Below are positions 14,930-59,326 of a stretch of 64,000 nt of DNA, in pieces. Positions within the stretch are counted from its first letter, which is position 1. Every line of letters begins with the position of its first letter. The notes below the pieces were generated by a model. That model worked only from the letters and a program-made list of their open reading frames with translations, had not been told where the DNA came from and made no database searches. Made by a program: the position numbers and the translations under genes. Source of the stretch: Kofleriaceae bacterium (GTDB lineage Bacteria; Myxococcota_A; Polyangia; Haliangiales; Haliangiaceae); NCBI GenBank assembly GCA_965215005.1, contig CBDCCZ010000012.1, positions 128,001 to 192,000 on the forward strand. The letters are read 5' to 3'.

Positions 14930-15139
14930 CCACCGGGACCGCGCATTCTGGCAACAGTCACCGCAGAGCGCGTTCCTAGTGAGCCACAAGGGACGGAAGA
15001 CCACGATTGATGAAACCTCACTGTACAAATCGCCAAGGCGAAAATCTCGTCTGCCACGCCTCATCTAGGGTGGATGAGACTCGGCTGGGTGCGTTTGATA
15101 CGTGGGACTAGGCGCCGCATCTCCGGCATGGGAGTCGAC

Positions 15140-16013
15140 ATGACGTTCCGCAAATTGCTTTCTTCGCTGCTCGTCGCGGCCGCCCTCGTGGTGCCGAGCC
15201 TGGTTGCCGATCACTCGCTTGCGCACGCGCAAACCGAGCGGGAGAGTCCGCTGGCCGATCAGCCGCCGGTGCGACATCGCATCCTCTTGGTGCGCAACCG
15301 CTTCGAGATCACCCCCGCCTTCGAAGCCACGGTCAACCCCGAGTTTCGCCAGGCGCTGTCGTTTGGTGGCAAGCTCGAGTACCACATCAGCGACATGTTC
15401 TCGGTGGGCGTGGTCGGCTTCTACGGGATCAATCGCGACACCGAGCTCACCAGCCGAATCATCAATACGTTGCCCGATGGCAATACCGCGCCGCCGCCCG
15501 CAGGCGACCCCACGCCTACCAAGCAAGAGTTCAGCTCGCACCTCAACGAGATGCCGTTTCACGGCGCCGCCTATATAGGCTTGACGCCGTGGTACGGCAA
15601 GCTAGCCGCGTTTGGGCAGTTCTTCGTCAACTTCGACTTTTATTTTCAAGCCGGCGTCTCGTTTGCGCAGCTCAAAGCGAGCTGTGCCGACACCGTCTGC
15701 AGCGACCGCAACCCCGGCGTCTCGGATCCCGCGGAGGGTCTAGCACCTGACAACGATCCCAATAACGATCCAACGCTCAATGATGGCAACCGCTATGGCC
15801 TGTATCTGGGCGGCGGCATTCACGTATTTCTCAACGACTTCATCGCCCTCGACCTCACCGTGCGCGACCTACGCGTTCTCGGACAATCCCTCGGGCTTGG
15901 ACTTCAACGCCGACCTCGCCGTCACCGACGACGACAGCCGCTTCTTGAATCATCTCTTCATGGGCGTGGGCATCTCAGTACTGCTGCCGTTCGAGGCCAA
16001 GCGCACCCCGTAG
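15140..16013 (+). CDS. Outer membrane beta-barrel protein, GltA/B/H-like paralog (frameshift near 15868)
   Basis: GGAG SD, signal peptide, [26 protein letters not shown]-terminal [14 protein letters not shown] is in a shifted frame. Confidence 0.8.
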
Positions 16014-16055
16014 CCTCCGGCCCTGCTCGCGGCTCTCGACGCCAGCCGAAATCAG

Positions 16056-16091
16056 CAACGCCGCACAGGCCCAGAGGCTCGTGCGGCGTTG
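16056..16091. terminator. Hairpin between convergent genes
   Basis: Perfect 11-bp inverted repeat CAACGCCGCAC/GTGCGGCGTTG. Confidence 0.5.
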
Positions 16092-16122
16092 TTCGTTACC
16101 GCGCGGGGTGGCTACGGTACGG

Positions 16123-16177
16123 ACTAGTGGTTTGCGGCGTAAGCCGGCAAACCACTAGTAAAGCAACAATCGCTTAG
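16123..16177 (+). repeat. CTAG-bounded palindromic element, copy 1 (intergenic)
   Basis: ACTAGTGGTTTGC/GCAAACCACTAGT 13-bp inverted repeat with GTAA loop, plus tail AAAGCAACAATCGCTT shared with the copy at 43846-43898. Confidence 0.8.
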
Positions 16178-16770
16178 TAGTCGAGTCCGACGGTCTGGAA
16201 CAGGTGCTGCGGCATGCGCGCCAAGTCGGTCCGGATCTGCCGCATCGTGCCGTCACGCTCGAGCCCGAGGGTGACCCGCTGACCGGCGCGCCGGCTGCGA
16301 ATCATGTGCACCAGGTCCTGGGAGTCGGCCACTGGTTGGCCATCCACCGCGACGATGACATCGCCCGGAATCACTCCAGCGCCCCGCGCGGGTGAGCCGT
16401 GAAGAACTCGCACCACGCGAGCGCCCGCCGGATCGTGCGCGGTCGCCGCCGCTGACGCATCGGCGGTGACGATGTTGACTCCGAGCCACGTCGGAGCGGT
16501 ATCAGCCCAGCGATGATCGAGGACCACCGCGCGATGAGACACCGCCGACAGGTGCGGGCAACGATGCTCGCGCACAGCGTGCGCCATGTTGCTGAGACCA
16601 AAACCGACGGCGACCCCTGCCAGCGAGCACAACGCCACCAACACGGCCAGCCGCCCACGCTCACTGGGGACCAAGATGGTCTCGCGCTTGAGCGGCGCTG
16701 GTTGGGGAATCGAGCAATTCTCGCGGCGAGTTCTGGGTGCGGTGCTTGCGGTGTCGTCGGCCTGCTTCAT
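16174..16770 (-). CDS. Membrane-anchored PDZ domain protein
   Basis: GGAGG SD before ATG 16770, TM helix, [24 protein letters not shown]. Confidence 0.85.
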
Positions 16771-16890
16771 GAATACCTCCGTGGGTGCGGCGTTGAGTCT
16801 ATAAGCTTTGCGCCATTCCAGCCGTGAATCCAGGCAAAAGTGCAGGTCCATGGAAGGCCTTTGAGCGCCGTGCTAGCCTCCGCTAACCGC

Positions 16891-39966: not shown

Positions 39967-40498
39967 ATGCGACGCCAGGGGGGAATGACGATCATGGAGC
40001 TGATGGTCGCGGTGGCGATCGTCGGCGTCCTGGCGGCGGTGGCGGTGTTCATGTTCACCAAGACCACCAAGAAGGGCCAAAGCCGACGCCGAGGTCAACG
40101 CGATGTTCACCGAGCTGCGTTTGCGCCAAGAGGCCTACCACGTCGAAAACGGCGCCTATCTATCCACCGGTGCCGACGAAAGCGATGCCTTTCCGGCGAG
40201 CCCTTCTGGTCCCAGCGGCGGGACAGAAATCCAGCCCATGCCCGCGACCTGGACGGCGCTGCGACTGCGGCCGGGCCGAGACACGGTGCTCTGCACCTAC
40301 GTGAGCATGGCGGGCGATGGCGGCGATGACACCAACCTCGGTGCGGTGGCGCAGAGCTTCGGCATGGACAGCGCGCCGGCAACCAACTGGTACTACCTGC
40401 TCGCCGAGTGCGACATGGACGGAAACAGCAGCGTCAACTCGTTTTATTTTTCGCGAAGCGACACCACCGGTGTAGCGAAGCGAAACGAAGGCCGATAA
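39967..40498 (+). CDS. Type IV pilin-like protein (frameshift near 40075)
   Basis: [27 protein letters not shown] prepilin motif, continuing in another frame as [18 protein letters not shown]...ECDMDGN. Confidence 0.85.
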
Positions 40499-40569
40499 CC
40501 CATTCACCGTTCGCGAAACTCGTAAAGCCGAATTCTCGGCGCAAGAACCACAACCGGAGGTACGTAGAG

Positions 40570-41121
40570 ATGATTTCGAAGCTGCGCAATAAAGCCCAAA
40601 AAGGTTTCACCCTCATCGAGCTCATGATCGTCGTCGCCATCATCGGCATCCTCGCCGCGGTCGCGGTGCCCGCCTTCATGAAGTACATGCAGAAGGCGAA
40701 GACCACGGAGGCCAAGCAGTTCGTCAAGAAGATCTACGATGGCGCTCGCACGTATTACGTCGACAGCGACACCAACAGCGCTTCACAGGAGCCGGTGGCC
40801 AAGCAGTTCCCGGCGACGACCGCAGCAACTCCTGCAGAGAATGCCTGCTGCAGTGAGGTCGGTGAAAAGTGTCAGCCCTCCGCGGCTCTGTGGGATACGG
40901 GCGACGATGCACCCACGTGGAACGCCCTGCAGTTTTCGATTACAGACCCTCACTACTACTGGTACACGTTCGAATCTGATCCCGAGGTGGAATTCACCGC
41001 TCGCGCCAACGGAAACCTCGACTGTGACACCAACTTTTCTACATTCGAGATGAAGGGATACGTGCAGGACGGAGAGGTGCAAGGCGGTCAAGGCATGTCG
41101 CGCGCCAACGAGCTCGAGTAA
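40570..41121 (+). CDS. pilA: Type IVa major pilin
   Basis: [46 protein letters not shown], followed by a hairpin. Confidence 0.85.
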
Positions 41122-41150
41122 GATACCTCCGTTCCCGTTCCTGGATGTTT

Positions 41151-41174
41151 CCGCCGGGGCCTGCTCCCCGGCGG
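41151..41174 (+). terminator. Hairpin downstream of pilA
   Basis: CCGCCGGGG/CCCCGGCGG 9-bp stem. Confidence 0.5.
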
Positions 41175-41207
41175 TCGCATTTGGGCTTCGGCCCACGAAG
41201 GCTCACC

Positions 41208-41771
41208 ATGCGGCCAACGCCCACGCGCATCCGACACCCTCATAGCGGCTTCACGTTGATTGAGCTCCTGATTGCGGTGGCCATCATCGGAATACTGTCT
41301 GTCGTGGCACTTCCTTCCTTCATGAGCTACATCCGCAAGGCTAGATCATCCGAAGCTCGCACCCAGCTGAAACTGATCAGTGACGGTGCAAGACTTTATT
41401 ACTTGGATGAGCATTTTTCCGACGACTTGAGAACGACTCTGCCGAAGTCCTTTCCGATGACCCAGACGTCACCGACACCGATAGCCACTTGTTGCGCAAA
41501 TGGGTCACGCAAGTGCATGCCGGCCGACGGCGGCTGGGAGAATGACGAAACGTGGCGGGCTCTAGGCTTCGCCATGTCCGATCCCCACTACTATCGCTAT
41601 CAGTTTGTAGCCTCGGGAACGGGGCTCGACGCCGAGTTCACTGGCCGCGCCTTCGGCGACCTCGACTGCGACGGCATCCAGTCTACATTCGAGATCCACG
41701 GTACCGTCTCCGACGACTCCAACGACGTTCGCTCAGGTAGAGCCATTGGACGTCAAAACGAGCTCGAGTAG
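41208..41771 (+). CDS. Type IV pilin, paralog of pilA
   Basis: HSG|FTLIELLIAVAIIGILSVVALPSFMSY. Shares CC..KC, DPHYY, LDCD and terminal NELE with pilA. Confidence 0.9.
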   Translation: MRPTPTRIRHPHSGFTLIELLIAVAIIGILSVVALPSFMSYIRKARSSEARTQLKLISDGARLYYLDEHFSDDLRTTLPKSFPMTQTSPTPIATCCANGSRKCMPADGGWENDETWRALGFAMSDPHYYRYQFVASGTGLDAEFTGRAFGDLDCDGIQSTFEIHGTVSDDSNDVRSGRAIGRQNELE

Positions 41772-42801: not shown

Positions 42802-43506
42802 TCAACGCTGTCGTGCGTGGCGCAGCCAAAACCGACCCATTTCCCACATCGTCTTGGCGATGACGCGCGGCTTATAGACGCCGCTCATGCCGGCTTTGCG
42901 CGGCAAGCATTTGGCCTCGACATGCACCACGCGGGCGCCGCGAGCGCGGGCGCGCACGAAGATTTCGGTGCACATGAACACGCCGTCGGAGTCGATGGGC
43001 ATCCCGTCGAAGAGCTCGCGCCGATAGAGATAGAGGAAGTTGAAGTCGTCGTAGTCGTGCAGGCCAAACAACCGCTGCGCGAGCTCGATGTAGACCTTGG
43101 AGCTCAAGAGTCGCATCGGCGTATAGCCGGGACGATCGGAGCGGCTGCCGATGACGATGTCGGCCTCGTCCAAGAGCGGGATGAACTGCGCCACCTCGGC
43201 AAAGTCGAGCTGCTGGTCGGCGGCGTGAAAGCAGATGACCTCGTTTCGAGAGTTGCGGATGCCGGTGAGAATCGCGGTTCCAGGGCCGAGGTTCTTCGGA
43301 TGGCGGATGACGAGCACCTCGTCGTAGCGGCGCTCCAGCTCCGCGGCGATTCGCGCGGTGCCGTCGGTCGAGCCATCGTCGACGAGCAAGATCTCAAACT
43401 GCCGATCGCCGAACGCGCTGAGCTCGCGATGAACGTCCGCCACCGCCTCTTCGAGGGTCTCTTCCTCGTTGTACGCAAGGATCGTGCAGCTCACCGAACG
43501 GGCCAT
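42802..43506 (-). CDS. Glycosyltransferase family 2 (DPM synthase-like)
   Basis: AYNEEETL, LVDDGSTDGT, NLGPG.A, ADQQ, DIVIGSR. Confidence 0.92.
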   Translation of the reverse strand: MARSVSCTILAYNEEETLEEAVADVHRELSAFGDRQFEILLVDDGSTDGTARIAAELERRYDEVLVIRHPKNLGPGTAILTGIRNSRNEVICFHAADQQLDFAEVAQFIPLLDEADIVIGSRSDRPGYTPMRLLSSKVYIELAQRLFGLHDYDDFNFLYLYRRELFDGMPIDSDGVFMCTEIFVRARARGARVVHVEAKCLPRKAGMSGVYKPRVIAKTMWEMGRFWLRHARQR

Positions 43507-43556
43507 CCGCCGATGGTACGCCACCTTTAGGACAACTCGCGAGCGAGCCTTCGCAG

Positions 43557-44387
43557 CTATCCGCCGGTCTCGAGAAGCGCCAGCAAGTCGGTGAGCGAGG
43601 CGATTCGTGCGCTCGCGGTTGGCGCGGCGGCGTCGGTCACGGCAACGAGCTCGAGCCGGATTTCTGGCGGCAACAATCGCCGCGCATCGGCCACCGCCCC
43701 AGCGTCCCGCCAGCTATCCCCCACATACCAAACGCGCATAAACTGCGCGCGGCCGCCGCGGGATTCATGACGCAGCAATCCGCCGTCCCGAGGCGGGGCA
43801 AGGGCGGCAAATTTCCGCTGCTCACGTGCCTCCTTCGGCGTCTCCCCAAGCGCTTGTTGCTTTGCTAGCGGTTCACGACTTGCGCGATGAACCACTAGCT
43901 GCTCGATGGCGCTAGCCAAACCGCGGCCATCGGGTTTGGGCGCGGGCGCATCGTCGCGACTCATGCACACGGTAAACGCGGCTTCAATGCCCGCCGCGGC
44001 CAACGCCGGCGCCACGCAGGCGCGACCGTTGTTGGTCACGATTCCAAGAAGCACGCCGCGGGCGGCCAACGTCGCAACCACCGAGGCACCCGGACGCGGA
44101 CGCGCGCGCGCCGCAGCAACGCGCTCGGCGTCGCCGATGAGCTGCCACGCAGCGCGCACCAGCTCTCGCTGCTCGTGCGCCTCGGAGCTCGCCAGCGTGG
44201 CCGCTTCTTCGATGCGCTCCAGCAGCGGCCGCATCTCGAGCACCACCCCGCGCGCCGCAAACAGCGCCGCCACCGCCGCTCGAGTCGGCTCGATGGCAAC
44301 CGGCAGCTCGAGCAGCGTGCCGTCGAGGTCAAAGAGGACCGCGACGTTGCCGCCGTAATGAGCCCTAGCGCTGCCGCCACCGATCAC
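43557..44387 (-). CDS. HAD family hydrolase carrying an in-frame insertion
   Basis: LFDLDGTL, GIVTNN, KPD, YVGDS. 54 aa lie between EQL and VWYVGD. Confidence 0.88.
   Translation of the reverse strand: MIGGGSARAHYGGNVAVLFDLDGTLLELPVAIEPTRAAVAALFAARGVVLEMRPLLERIEEAATLASSEAHEQRELVRAAWQLIGDAERVAAARARPRPGASVVATLAARGVLLGIVTNNGRACVAPALAAAGIEAAFTVCMSRDDAPAPKPDGRGLASAIEQLVVHRASREPLAKQQALGETPKEAREQRKFAALAPPRDGGLLRHESRGGRAQFMRVWYVGDSWRDAGAVADARRLLPPEIRLELVAVTDAAAPTASARIASLTDLLALLETGG
43745..43898 (-). repeat. CTAG-bounded palindromic element, copy 2 (intragenic, in frame)
   Basis: Minus strand CTAGTGGTTCATCGCGCAAGTCGTGAACCGCTAGCAAAGCAACAAGCGCTT aligns with 16124-16175. Left boundary approximate. Confidence 0.75.
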
Positions 44388-45472
44388 GCGTCGGGCAAGC
44401 CCGCGGTGGGAAAGGCATCAAAGCCGGATTCGCCGCGCACCGCCACCGGGCCGCAGTCCAGAGTGCGCACCCAATACACCTCCGGCTCGACCACCGCGTG
44501 GGGATCGGCGGCGGGCTCGCTGTCGTCGCCTCGTGCCATGGAGACCAGCAGCCATGGAAAATTGTAGCCCGCTTCGGTGTAGGCCATGACGGTGGTCCCA
44601 CAGCGGCCAGCGTTGATTTCGGTGACTCGCGGATGGCCTTCGGCATCGCCTTTGAGGTCGACGAAGTACACGCCGTGCGGCTTGGAATCAATGGCTCGGA
44701 CCGCGCGCTCGCCGAGCGCTGCGACGTCGGGTCGGACGACGGTGCGGCTCACCGCCGGCGCTCCGGTGACGCCCGAGGGCGAGACGTGCGGCAGCACGTA
44801 CTCGAGACGCTCGCGCACACCGCTCGCGATGAGGACGCCATGGGCAAAGCCAGCCATCCAGCTGGAGTTGGCGCCCGGCAAGTACTCGCTGGCGGCCATG
44901 CGACCCCAGCCGCGATGGTGCTCGACCCACGCCCGCGCGATGCCGCGGTCGGTGCAGGGCAAGGCGGCGCCGCCGAGCCCGCGACCGGGCGCGCCGCTGC
45001 CGCGCACCCACACCCGCCCGTCTGTGCCGCCGAGCTCGGCAAACGCGCGCTCGAGATCACTGTCGGCGTGGAGCTCGATGGTGCGCGGAACCGCAACGCC
45101 TGCGGCATTCAGTCGGCGCTGCGTCGCCGCTTTGTCATCGCAGATGGCAATGACCTCGGGCGAAGGCAACGCGGTGCCCACTGTGAGCGCGCCAGTGGCG
45201 ATGAGCTCTGCGACAGCGAACACCTCCACGGGATGCGTGGGAACGATGACGTCGATGCGCTCGCGGGCGATGAGCTCCACGAGCGCCTCGCGGTAGTCAC
45301 GGCCAGTGCGAGCCAAGGGAATCCGGTAGGTCTGATCGCACTCCGAAAGCGGCAGGTGCCAGCGGTTGGCATCGGTTCCGATCAGGCGAAGGGGCTCGGG
45401 CGCGCGCCGCAGCGAACGGGTCAAGTTGACGCCGAGCGGCCCGCCGGCGCCGGTGATGAGAACCGTGGTCAT
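44384..45472 (-). CDS. ATP-grasp domain protein (carbamoyl-phosphate synthase/PylC-like fold)
   Basis: VLITGAGG, IDVIVP, ICDDK, VPRT, SEYLPG, TEINAGR. Confidence 0.85.
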   Translation of the reverse strand: MTTVLITGAGGPLGVNLTRSLRRAPEPLRLIGTDANRWHLPLSECDQTYRIPLARTGRDYREALVELIARERIDVIVPTHPVEVFAVAELIATGALTVGTALPSPEVIAICDDKAATQRRLNAAGVAVPRTIELHADSDLERAFAELGGTDGRVWVRGSGAPGRGLGGAALPCTDRGIARAWVEHHRGWGRMAASEYLPGANSSWMAGFAHGVLIASGVRERLEYVLPHVSPSGVTGAPAVSRTVVRPDVAALGERAVRAIDSKPHGVYFVDLKGDAEGHPRVTEINAGRCGTTVMAYTEAGYNFPWLLVSMARGDDSEPAADPHAVVEPEVYWVRTLDCGPVAVRGESGFDAFPTAGLPDA

Positions 45473-46224
45473 GGCTCGAGCGGCGCTCCAAAAAGCTCGC
45501 GCGCGTTGTCGCCCAAGATGCGCCGCTTGTCGCGCTCCGGCAGCGCCATGCCGGCCACCGCGCCGAGGTACATCAGCGGGTGCGCCAAGCCATAGTCGGA
45601 GCCCATCAGATACCGTTCAGCGCCCAGCAGCGCCACGTTGCGCTCGATGACCCAGTATTCGCGCACGCCCGAGAACTCGAACCACACGTTATCGAGCTTC
45701 TCGCGCGCCACCAGCTCGGCAGCGGCGGTGGCTAGCGGCGGCGTGTCACCTCCGGCGTGCGCCAAGATGAAGCGTACCCGCGGCCGCGCCTTGGCCGCCT
45801 CGACGGCGAACCGATAGCTGGCGATCTCTTGCCAGCGACCGCAATGCACCAGGATGGCCAGATTTTCAGCCTCGGCGAGCTCGAGAGCGGGACCAAACGC
45901 CGCATCGGTGAGGCGCGCTCGCGACAACGATGGATGGATTTTCAGCCCGGTGAGATGACCGGCGTTGGCGTCCGCCCAGTCGAGATCGCCGGTGTCCGGG
46001 CGCACCCACGCAAACATCCAGAGGGCGCCTCGCCACCCCGCCGCCAACACCGCGCGCGCCTCGGCGAGCAGACCCGCATTGTCGCAACGATCGGTGGTCA
46101 TGATGCCCGCTCCGGCAATGCCGGCGTCATCGAGCACCTCGACCACATCCTTCATGCTCACCGCGCGGCCGAGAAAGTCCGCGTGGCTCCACTCTCCAAC
46201 GTGAATATGCGCATCGATGATCAT
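45469..46224 (-). CDS. Amidohydrolase family (TIM-barrel metallohydrolase)
   Basis: IIDAHIH, GLKIHP, ILVHCG, ILAHAG, LMGSDY. Confidence 0.9.
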   Translation of the reverse strand: MIIDAHIHVGEWSHADFLGRAVSMKDVVEVLDDAGIAGAGIMTTDRCDNAGLLAEARAVLAAGWRGALWMFAWVRPDTGDLDWADANAGHLTGLKIHPSLSRARLTDAAFGPALELAEAENLAILVHCGRWQEIASYRFAVEAAKARPRVRFILAHAGGDTPPLATAAAELVAREKLDNVWFEFSGVREYWVIERNVALLGAERYLMGSDYGLAHPLMYLGAVAGMALPERDKRRILGDNARELFGAPLEP

Positions 46225-46264
46225 GCGTGTGGGCCCCCTGCCGCTAATCACGTTCACCGGCGAA

Positions 46265-46296
46265 GGTTCGCGACGCAAGTCGCAAGCCGCGCAAAA
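46265..46296 (+). repeat. Degenerate copy of the palindromic element hairpin
   Basis: GGTTCGCGAC-GCAA-GTCGCAAGCCGCGCAAA resembles the core of copies 1 and 2. Confidence 0.5.
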
Positions 46297-46493
46297 CGCC
46301 AGCGATGGCCGCGAGACGCTGGCGATACCGCCATCCGCGGGCATTGCTGCGACCTCGCCCGCATCGCACCGCACGGGCTCCTGCGGCGTGGGGCGCGTCC
46401 GCGACCTCTACCGGCACTCACTCAATTACAAGCGATCATCGGCAGACGCTCGGCAGCCGTGCGCAGCCCGTTGCAGCGCGCGAACTTGCGGCG

Positions 46494-58162: not shown

Positions 58163-59326
58163 TCAGGATTTCTTCTGCATTGGGCATCTCGCGGCGACCA
58201 GCTCGAGGATTACCCGGCCGAAGTGCTCCTCGAGCTCGCTGTCGAAGTCATTCTCGCCGAGCGTCGCGAGCGCGCCGAGAAATCGCGGCCAGCTCGAATC
58301 GCACGCCTCAAAGAGCGTCGCGAGCTCCTCGAAGCCGGCGTTATACACCTTGTAGACCAGGAGCGAGGCGTTGTTGGGCTCACTCACCAAGTCGAGCTCC
58401 CGGCGCAGCGCGGCCAAGATGCTGCGCTTACGCGCAAGCTTTGCCTCATCCGTCGTCGAGCTGGCGTAGACGGCGGCGAGCTCGGTGTACGCCGCCGTCA
58501 GGCGGGCGCCGCGGCTGCGATCGCCAGCGAGATCCTCCTGATACTGCAACAGCTCCGGAGACTGCGCGCCAAACCGAGCAGCCAGATAATCGGCCGCCAT
58601 ACCGTCGCCCACGAAGCTCGCGATGCTCTCGTTGAAGTAGGTCTGGCTGGGGATGAAGATGGTCGCGTGCACGAGCTCATGAATGAGAATGTTGGCGAGC
58701 GATGCAAACGCATCGTCCTCGGGCGAGAACATCGAGCTCAGCACAGGGTCAGGAAACCAACCGCCGGTGGAGTAGGCACTCACGCCGCGGATGTAAACGT
58801 CGTAGCCGCGTCCGCGCATGCGCCGATAGAACGCCAGTGCATCTTCCCGTTCGAAGTAGCTGAGATTGGGAAAGGCGCCAACGATGGGGAACGTAAACGT
58901 CACCGGCTCGAGCGCCAACGGCTCCGCAGCACTCACGAACCAAACCACCGCGTCATCATCGAGCTCGACGAACCTGGTGTAGCGGTTGGCGACTGAGAGG
59001 CCCTGCTCCCTTGCGTACTCTTTGATGAGAAGCGACTCCGAGAGCAGCATTGCGGTGCGCTCATCGACGTTGGGATCGTCGATGACGCGATCGATGGGAC
59101 GAGCGCGCTGCAAGAGCTGGAGCTGGCCATGCGCCGCCTGACCGAGATAGCGCGGGTCGACGCATCCCGTGACCACGACGACCAGCGCGAGCAGAGCCGC
59201 TAGCAGCCCACCGATCAATGGTGGAGACGCCGAAGGCGGCGCGTCACCAAACGTGCGGCGGTGTCGTCGTCGTTGACGAAAATCTGAGAGGTCGCGGCGC
59301 TCGAGTCGCGGGATTTCACGTGGCAT
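58163..59326 (-). CDS. Putative zinc aminopeptidase lipoprotein
   Basis: VTGC lipobox, YLGQAAHGQL, FPIVG, AYSTGGWFPDPVLSS, IHELVH, FNESIASFV. Start uncertain. Confidence 0.88.
   Translation of the reverse strand: MPREIPRLERRDLSDFRQRRRHRRTFGDAPPSASPPLIGGLLAALLALVVVVTGCVDPRYLGQAAHGQLQLLQRARPIDRVIDDPNVDERTAMLLSESLLIKEYAREQGLSVANRYTRFVELDDDAVVWFVSAAEPLALEPVTFTFPIVGAFPNLSYFEREDALAFYRRMRGRGYDVYIRGVSAYSTGGWFPDPVLSSMFSPEDDAFASLANILIHELVHATIFIPSQTYFNESIASFVGDGMAADYLAARFGAQSPELLQYQEDLAGDRSRGARLTAAYTELAAVYASSTTDEAKLARKRSILAALRRELDLVSEPNNASLLVYKVYNAGFEELATLFEACDSSWPRFLGALATLGENDFDSELEEHFGRVILELVAARCPMQKKS
59194..59249 (+). repeat. Partial copy of the palindromic element within the 5' end of the aminopeptidase
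   Basis: GAGCCGCTAGCA-N17-GGAGACGCCGAAGGCGGCGCGT versus GAACCGCTAGCA-N17-GGAGACGCCGAAGGAGGCACGT in copy 2. Confidence 0.55.

Follow-up and report, generated by a model that had tools for sequence, protein, structure and literature searches.

A 150-bp CTAG-bounded repeat, most likely an IS630-type MITE, lies in frame inside a HAD hydrolase gene of a Kofleriaceae bacterium

Rickettsia palindromic elements (RPEs; Ogata et al. 2000, 2002) are described in reviews as palindromic repeats of about 150 bp that occur in frame in unrelated enzymes; by these accounts nearly half of the copies lie in genes, only some have TA ends, and a guanylate kinase assay serves as proof at the protein level (PMC10969869, PMC2229807). 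Overviews of other small repeats describe in-frame fusions of ERIC and Correia sequences and about 9 internal inserts of BRE (PMC3184786, PMC2229807). IS630 elements are described as cutting and pasting into TA, which they duplicate (PMC2170065), and RUP is presented as a MITE whose assignment to IS630 rests on the grounds that we use here (PMC2229807). Here we describe a repeat of a Kofleriaceae bacterium that works like RPEs but is far rarer in genes, and we do not class it as an RPE member. We propose, with a probability of about 0.8, that an insert in a HAD hydrolase gene is one copy of a 150-bp non-coding, CTAG-bounded repeat present in more than 100 copies and moved in trans by an IS630-family transposase, and that the copies in genes are tolerated. 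A literature search, mostly of open-access journals, found no report of this repeat family or of such repeats in myxobacteria.

The window, that is, the whole 64,000-nucleotide stretch of contig CBDCCZ010000012.1 (assembly GCA_965215005.1) that was analysed, contains on its minus strand an ORF (43557-44387) for a 276-aa HAD hydrolase (PF00702, E 2e-13), which scores below the cut-off for named HAD subfamilies (Table 1). Motifs I–IV (DxD, T, K, GDxxxD) and the Rossmann-like core are present, and D20, D22, T118, K151, D224 and D228 are all intact in the homolog alignment. The first-pass annotation, made from the sequence of the window, had counted 54 residues between EQL and VWYVGDS, where HAD phosphatases normally have only a short loop between the motif III helix and motif IV; the ORF translation bears this out (L164 to V219). 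From the motif III helix to the aromatic residue before GDS the protein has 55 residues, compared with 7 in 22/22 of its closest database homologs, a net excess of 48, and a gap of 48–50 residues was found in 10 of the 11 alignable ortholog loci of related genomes (L020 being the ortholog locus without a blastp match in this comparison). The homologs thus lack the segment, against the alternative that a stretch of the same length is conserved among orthologs. Pfam matches stop at residue 165–168, which is the start of the insert, and GC at third codon positions is 0.56 in the insert as opposed to 0.81 and 0.77 on its two sides. The gene is part of a four-gene cluster (42802-46374; amidohydrolase, PylC-like protein, HAD, GT2) conserved across the order, as seen in ortholog loci that reach just 1.5 kb to each side; we take the product of 44384-45472 to be ATP-grasp-like, going by the PylC-like family. 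Further off, at 40408-41771, are two tandem genes whose N-termini we assume to carry a type IV pilin-like motif.

Table 1 Repeat-derived features and neighbouring genes in the window
Feature	Position	Strand	Evidence
Truncated left-end copy of 54 bases that retains just the left hairpin and linker; lies between convergent genes and reaches the stop codon of 16174-16851	16124..16177	+	nhmmer E 1.3e-7
Glycosyltransferase family 2 gene, downstream of the HAD gene	42802..43524	-	PF00535; present in 6/11 ortholog loci
HAD-family phosphatase-like hydrolase, host gene	43557..44387	-	Pfam, homolog alignment, AlphaFold, Foldseek
Copy of the 150-bp CTAG-bounded repeat (subtype A), forming residues 164-212 of the HAD protein in frame	43752..43898	-	Consensus positions 1-147, 92% identity, 12 substitutions, no indel; aligned with 52 other copies
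Long central stem; apex conserved, pairing maintained between subtypes A and B by two-sided changes	43769..43818	-	RNAalifold: 12/36 pairs change on both sides
Terminal hairpin formed by the left inverted-repeat end and an inverted copy of itself; loop of GNRA type, a CTAG at each foot	43865..43898	-	Sequence and copy alignment; GNRA loop in 43/53 copies
Upstream gene, weak PylC-like N-terminal Pfam match below cut-off	44384..45472	-	Overlaps HAD start by 4 bases; adjoins HAD ortholog in 10/11 loci
Amidohydrolase gene, same conserved cluster	45469..46374	-	PF04909; present in 10/11 ortholog loci
Weak decayed repeat fragment over the predicted start of gene 58163-59218 (minus)	59194..59249	+	nhmmer E 0.004; local alignment

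An AlphaFold2 model of the HAD protein (23 sequences) had a mean pLDDT of 86.6, with most of the core above 90, and its Foldseek matches are HAD phosphatases. The insert is modelled as a lengthening of helix 155–179, an added short helix and a low-confidence loop (pLDDT <50 at 196–204), after which the motif IV strand re-forms at 217–223. In the HAD fold, the loop from this helix to the motif IV strand faces away from the active site. Because the insert is predicted on the face opposite the active site, the enzyme with its 48 extra residues probably still folds.

Searching with the HAD insert returned 112 BLASTN matches and 159 nhmmer matches (E ≤ 0.01) in the 6.2-Mb genome, and 72 reach both ends; the reversed genome, used as a control for the repeat profile, yielded no nhmmer match at E < 0.1. 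The mobile repeat suspected in the first-pass annotation therefore has more than 100 genomic copies, rather than none besides the one in the HAD gene. Strong copies have CTAG at both ends (its letters are present in 44–51 of 53 at the left and 31–45 of 53 at the right), and their flanks are not conserved. From CTAG to CTAG the unit measures exactly 150 bases (50 codons) in 28/53 copies and 149 in 12/53, and tandem copies have one CTAG in common, with a period of about 150. The two ends form imperfect inverted repeats that agree, in register, at 14 of 27 positions (shuffle p 0.006). Searches of plasmids and phages gave no real match of the repeat. Only two frames of the consensus are open, one per orientation, both with CTA as a codon (Leu), and the other four are stopped; the 50-codon length together with the two open frames at CTA|G therefore makes survival in frame possible.

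In the HAD gene the CTAG target lies at 43895-43898, with CTA as the codon of Leu164, and the far terminus of the copy, comprising the last bases and the second CTAG, is lost. The hairpin at 43865-43898 does have CTAG on both sides, as annotated, and its reported likeness to 16124-16177 holds, with arms in common and 16 of 19 tail bases the same. An insert spanning 43745-43898 had been proposed; 43752-43898 is derived from the element, whereas 43745-43751 is host sequence or junction. Likewise, the small GGATT/AATCC hairpin can be read in the sequence, although in the family fold its bases pair within one long central stem, on the other strand. Of the other two copies in the window, the weakly matching fragment 59194-59249 overlaps the predicted start and the hydrophobic N-terminus of gene 58163-59218 and may have supplied both. 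Beside the other copy, an outer-membrane beta-barrel gene at 15128-16177 (plus strand; TIGR04565 match below cut-off) is shifted by one base near 15880, which could be an assembly error. The natural C-terminus of this gene is in another frame and ends near 16013, so the long ORF that continues into the repeat fragment is spurious.

To place the copies relative to genes, we used gene calls from a custom codon model built for this genome. The 68 full-length copies represent 63 independent sites. Four of the copies are read in frame within genes, 20 lie on stop codons and 44 fall between genes; no gene is broken, where about 1 gene-breaking copy was expected (not significant alone). Available CTAG sites outside the repeat comprise 3518 that genes read as CTA|G, 896 genic sites in the other phase, 367 at stop codons and 1751 elsewhere; use of in-frame sites relative to intergenic ones has an odds ratio of 0.045, about 22-fold fewer copies per available site. 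Stop codons are enriched among the non-genic copies (20/64, p 0.005, with sites treated as independent), and the copies on them have no orientation bias (9 sense, 11 antisense).

Nine of the 159 matches are in-frame inserts in predicted genes (seven read in one orientation, two in the opposite one); all are in one of the two open registers and lengthen the predicted host proteins by up to 50 amino acids. Given these nine genes, the analogy to RPEs drawn in the first-pass annotation holds. Its statement that the palindrome creates new protein sequence applies to open in-frame inserts in DNA, hence to predicted proteins, but in-frame copies are rare survivors and not a preferred outcome. The hosts of the four full-length in-frame copies are the HAD hydrolase, a GNAT acetyltransferase, a CheA-like kinase and a Ser/Thr kinase-AAA protein. 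The GNAT insert corresponds to a gap of exactly 50 residues in 11/11 database homologs (no ortholog was found in 24 relatives), and the adjacent paralog of the kinase-AAA protein also shows a gap of exactly 50. Compared with this tandem paralog, the kinase-AAA gene (C14:122500-127590) has a frameshift near residue 840, downstream of the insert. A phosphoglucomutase, 53–64% identical to most of its orthologs, has an insert where 9/9 orthologs show a gap of 46–47 residues; its copy is 66% identical to the consensus and contains two 3-base deletions and no stop. For a histidine kinase and a TPR-AAA protein, each compared with 3 paralogs, homologs support the insert more raggedly, and the search for homologs usable in insert comparison found none for the CheA-like, C42 and DUF4388 hosts. 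Identity of the in-gene copies to the consensus falls from 97% to 66%. Multiples of 3 make up 19 of the 129 indels in non-genic copies, as against the two 3-base deletions of the phosphoglucomutase copy, a contrast that is partly circular since in-gene copies were chosen for open frames. A tenth gene is touched at C3:233229-234377 (L070), where a copy (83% identity) forms the last ~50 residues of the protein as a C-terminal fusion; the protein, presumably sensor-kinase-like, has no NCBIfam match. A weak candidate insert at C54 (peptide E 0.026) was left out of the counts.

As in RPEs, then, a palindromic repeat of about 150 bp occurs both between genes and in frame in unrelated conserved enzymes, with a conserved peptide of about 50 residues. 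It differs from RPEs, as far as the reviews describe them, in its low share in genes (4/68 full-length copies and 9/159 matches, against nearly half), its strict CTAG ends, its IS630 link, its two reading orientations and its host phylum, and in that the protein is predicted only. Correia/NEMIS, ERIC and BRE resemble it in that their intragenic presence is tied, subtype by subtype, to an open frame (107 versus 155 bp in Correia; subtype A versus B, C and D here), in a likeness of description between unrelated host groups (PMC2229807, PMC3184786).

The genome contains three 99%-identical IS630 copies (NF033545, 248 bits) with 1517 bases between the TAs, all in CTAG, and two of the three are inserted in the terminal CTAG of a repeat copy; the transposase is intact in the C14 copy and has single-base indels in the other two. 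These copies (C6:55890-58311, C21:67490-69013 and C14:184019-185541) look recently active and have a small antisense ORF in their left part, with a tandem partial copy at C6. A preference for CTAG targets is reportedly found in IS630-family elements. From 81 loci of IS630 relatives we collected 116 distinct ends, for which TA but not the full CTAG was required, and 110 of them start with CTAG. On a profile of these ends, 2 of 13006 unrelated CTAG sites score as high as the right end of the repeat or higher, and 34 of 13006 do so for the left end, but both ends lie far below true IS630 ends (−0.3 and −9.9, compared with 17 and 30). The right end agrees with each resident IS630 end at 17/27 positions, the left end at just 9–11/27, and some relatives (such as L197 and L216) begin with the same ten bases as the left end. 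A search with the end profile found no left-right end pair around an identifiable transposase in this genome, and the interior of the repeat is absent from 82 loci of IS630 relatives.

The ends of the repeat are similar to the terminal inverted repeats of the CTAG-targeting IS630 elements in the genome, so it is most likely an IS630-type MITE whose exact partner transposase has diverged or been lost. Other movers were considered and rejected: no IS5 (PF01609) or IS701 (PF13546) transposase was found in this genome, the ends of its other multi-copy IS-like elements differ from those of the repeat, and searches of this genome (93% complete) and of that of a bacterium of the same family and another genus (G016) gave no hit for an IS110/IS1111 bridge-RNA (PF02371) or TnpB-guided (PF07282) element. 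Short size, dispersed copies, TA/CTAG ends and IS630-like end sequences fit IS630-derived MITEs such as RUP of Streptococcus pneumoniae, which is likewise described as non-coding, present in more than 100 copies, with TA at both ends, ends resembling a resident IS630 and physical association with the IS (PMC2229807). RUP in that description has no open frame and is intergenic, whereas the repeat here has imperfect end repeats, a partial match to the resident IS630 and two hairpins instead of one end-to-end stem. Like IS630 and ISY100 it has a TA target inside CTAG, and its consensus ends relate to the group to which the resident transposase belongs, but it contains no transposase and, as noted, shares no interior with IS630 relatives (PMC2170065).

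On this basis, an IS630-family transposase would insert the repeat at the TA of CTAG, duplicating the TA, in a cut-and-paste reaction by an enzyme related to, and probably not identical with, the resident one. CTAG sites would be struck broadly, and selection would remove nearly all insertions in genes. An insertion on a C-TAG stop would rebuild the stop and so be harmless, and the few CTA|G insertions that survive would lie in surface loops. In the HAD protein the helix after motif III would be lengthened and a loose loop placed before the motif IV strand, away from the active site; this copy would have lost its far end afterwards and is probably fixed. The inserted peptides are most likely tolerated passengers and not new functions.

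Related repeats occur in other genomes. A pattern of the hairpin matched in 2 of the 147 genomes of the order and had no match in metagenome contigs; its five matches in genome contigs are all subtype B in one 'Nannocystineae bacterium' MAG, not counted as a separate lineage and the only named genome with the hairpin, in keeping with the myxobacterial setting assumed in the first-pass annotation. G016 carries subtype B, with the same left hairpin and a unit of 147–149 bases. Subtype C (unit 146) came up in G006 and G019 in a covariance-model search; with a second model, C-like and D copies were detected in G016, and G053 proved to contain subtype E. Counting the best ~20 candidates scored per genome, subtypes occur in at least 5/147 genomes of the order, all of one family, and in 0/150 other genomes of the phylum. 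The right end is of CTAG type in every subtype, a hairpin or a paired segment lies close to the left end, and all share an A-rich linker and the central apex; the end sequences differ, those of A, B and D resembling different IS630 groups. L323, L328, L290 and L261 are loci of subtypes C, D and E in G006, G016, G019 and G053, and G016 has three subtypes at once without a detected IS630. Subtype A alone combines a length that is a multiple of three with two open frames. None of 39 loci of other subtypes (19 in G016, 20 in G006/G019) lies in a gene, a result that is not significant (~2 expected at the rate of this genome, with genes called by its codon model) and that fits their non-triplet lengths.

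Several alternatives bear on these observations. The interior fold might be a working RNA or single-strand DNA module that serves spread or host tolerance, in a cassette fitted with the ends of different IS630 groups. Five subtypes in four genera do share the architecture (length 146–150, one 165; terminal hairpin; A-rich linker; a central stem with the same apex 59–63 bases from the right end) in spite of different ends and stem sequences, and 12 of 36 predicted pairs change on both sides between A and B. One strand is favoured: GNRA loops occur in 43/53 copies, G-U outnumbers A-C pairs 89 to 21 and 77 to 9, and the favoured strand folds better in 52/53, 7/8 and 11/16 copies. These counts are overstated, however, as the copies are kin, and most two-sided changes amount to one event per pair; RNAalifold recovered just 6 pairs on a three-lineage alignment (in which hairpin 1 is misaligned), and stable folds are described as usual in MITEs (PMC2229807). 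Copies on stop codons show no orientation bias, the repeat has no Rfam match, and TnpB and IS110 gave no hit in this genome or G016. We consider a working module of this kind quite improbable. An extended version, on which we would put slightly more weight while still thinking it doubtful, holds that the family is a superfamily of structured cassettes in which the strand-specific fold (GNRA hairpin, A-rich linker, fixed-apex stem) is functional and has been refitted with the ends of several IS630 groups, and that the shift of one lineage to exactly 50 codons gave a steady source of protein loops and a dated series, from fresh to decayed, in housekeeping enzymes. Several points tell against the IS630-type MITE reading: the inverted repeats are imperfect, both ends score low on the IS630 profile, and the left end matches the resident IS630 poorly. 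The searches of this genome, of other genomes and metagenome contigs and of the IS630 loci brought up no autonomous element with both ends. Moreover, the ends of subtype C have no score on the IS630 profile, G016 has no IS630 match, and the subtypes conserve their interior fold more than their ends, a feature that plain cut-and-paste does not require.

Decay is a more substantial concern, though we still judge it unlikely as the explanation: the HAD gene and some other hosts would be dispensable, or damaged by the insert, and the open frame a matter of luck and short time, all of which is compatible with IS630 origin. Identity of the HAD protein to its orthologs is at the low end, mostly after the insert (0.30 versus 0.33–0.42 for that part), in a stretch that also lacks a glycine-rich motif and 7 residues; 10 of its 12 changed insert codons are non-synonymous, the kinase-AAA host is frameshifted, and in-frame sites are under-used 22-fold. 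Some hosts may therefore be decaying. But the six catalytic positions are intact, the 276-codon frame is open and the gene cluster is complete, two other HAD orthologs are equally divergent overall (0.42), and the old phosphoglucomutase copy stayed in frame through 34% divergence. Far less credible is a REP/REPIN-like repeat spread by HUH (RAYT-like) Y1 proteins, with CTAG as a tag at the hairpin foot. The tetranucleotide in that place, the tandem arrays and the Y1_Tnp genes (5 in this genome, 8 in G016) would suit it; however, none of the 5 genes here is flanked by the repeat (the nearest copy is about 430 bases off, and other short repeats lie there), none of the 8 Y1 loci of G016 holds subtype B, and CTAG at both ends with IS630-like end sequence better fits a DDE element. 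The five RAYT-like Y1 HUH genes (C3:186058-186717, C4, C17, C25 and C46) are closely similar to one another, some lie by short tandem repeats unrelated to the element, and they may be a separate mobile family. Least of all do we credit removal of the insert from RNA, by splicing or ribosome bypass, or an error of assembly, even though the one-strand fold is strong and repeats do misassemble: all nine in-gene copies lie in one of two open registers, which removal would make unnecessary, and the HAD copy has 12 private substitutions. Two contigs of sequencing run X1 overlap inside this insert and match both junctions with 0 differences (X1 is probably the source sample and so not independent). 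Contigs of runs X1–X3, which cannot exclude such a joint, contained none that skips the insert at the HAD or CheA-like locus; the protein gaps in GNAT homologs and the kinase paralog are exactly 50 residues, and neither close relatives nor these runs showed an empty site in the DNA.

Taken as an IS630-type MITE with tolerated in-gene copies, the repeat offers a countable case of mobile DNA writing predicted new protein sequence outside Rickettsia. Within one genome, inserts from 97% to 66% identity occur in a phosphatase, an acetyltransferase, kinases and a phosphoglucomutase, and the target sites provide the denominator, which makes the cost and the decay of a 50-residue insert measurable. 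For annotation the family is a warning, as such inserts shorten Pfam matches and make unrelated proteins look falsely similar. The selection counts, the age series and the constancy of the interior despite changing ends are worth following; if the interior fold proved to be needed for movement, the view that bacterial MITEs need their ends alone would change.
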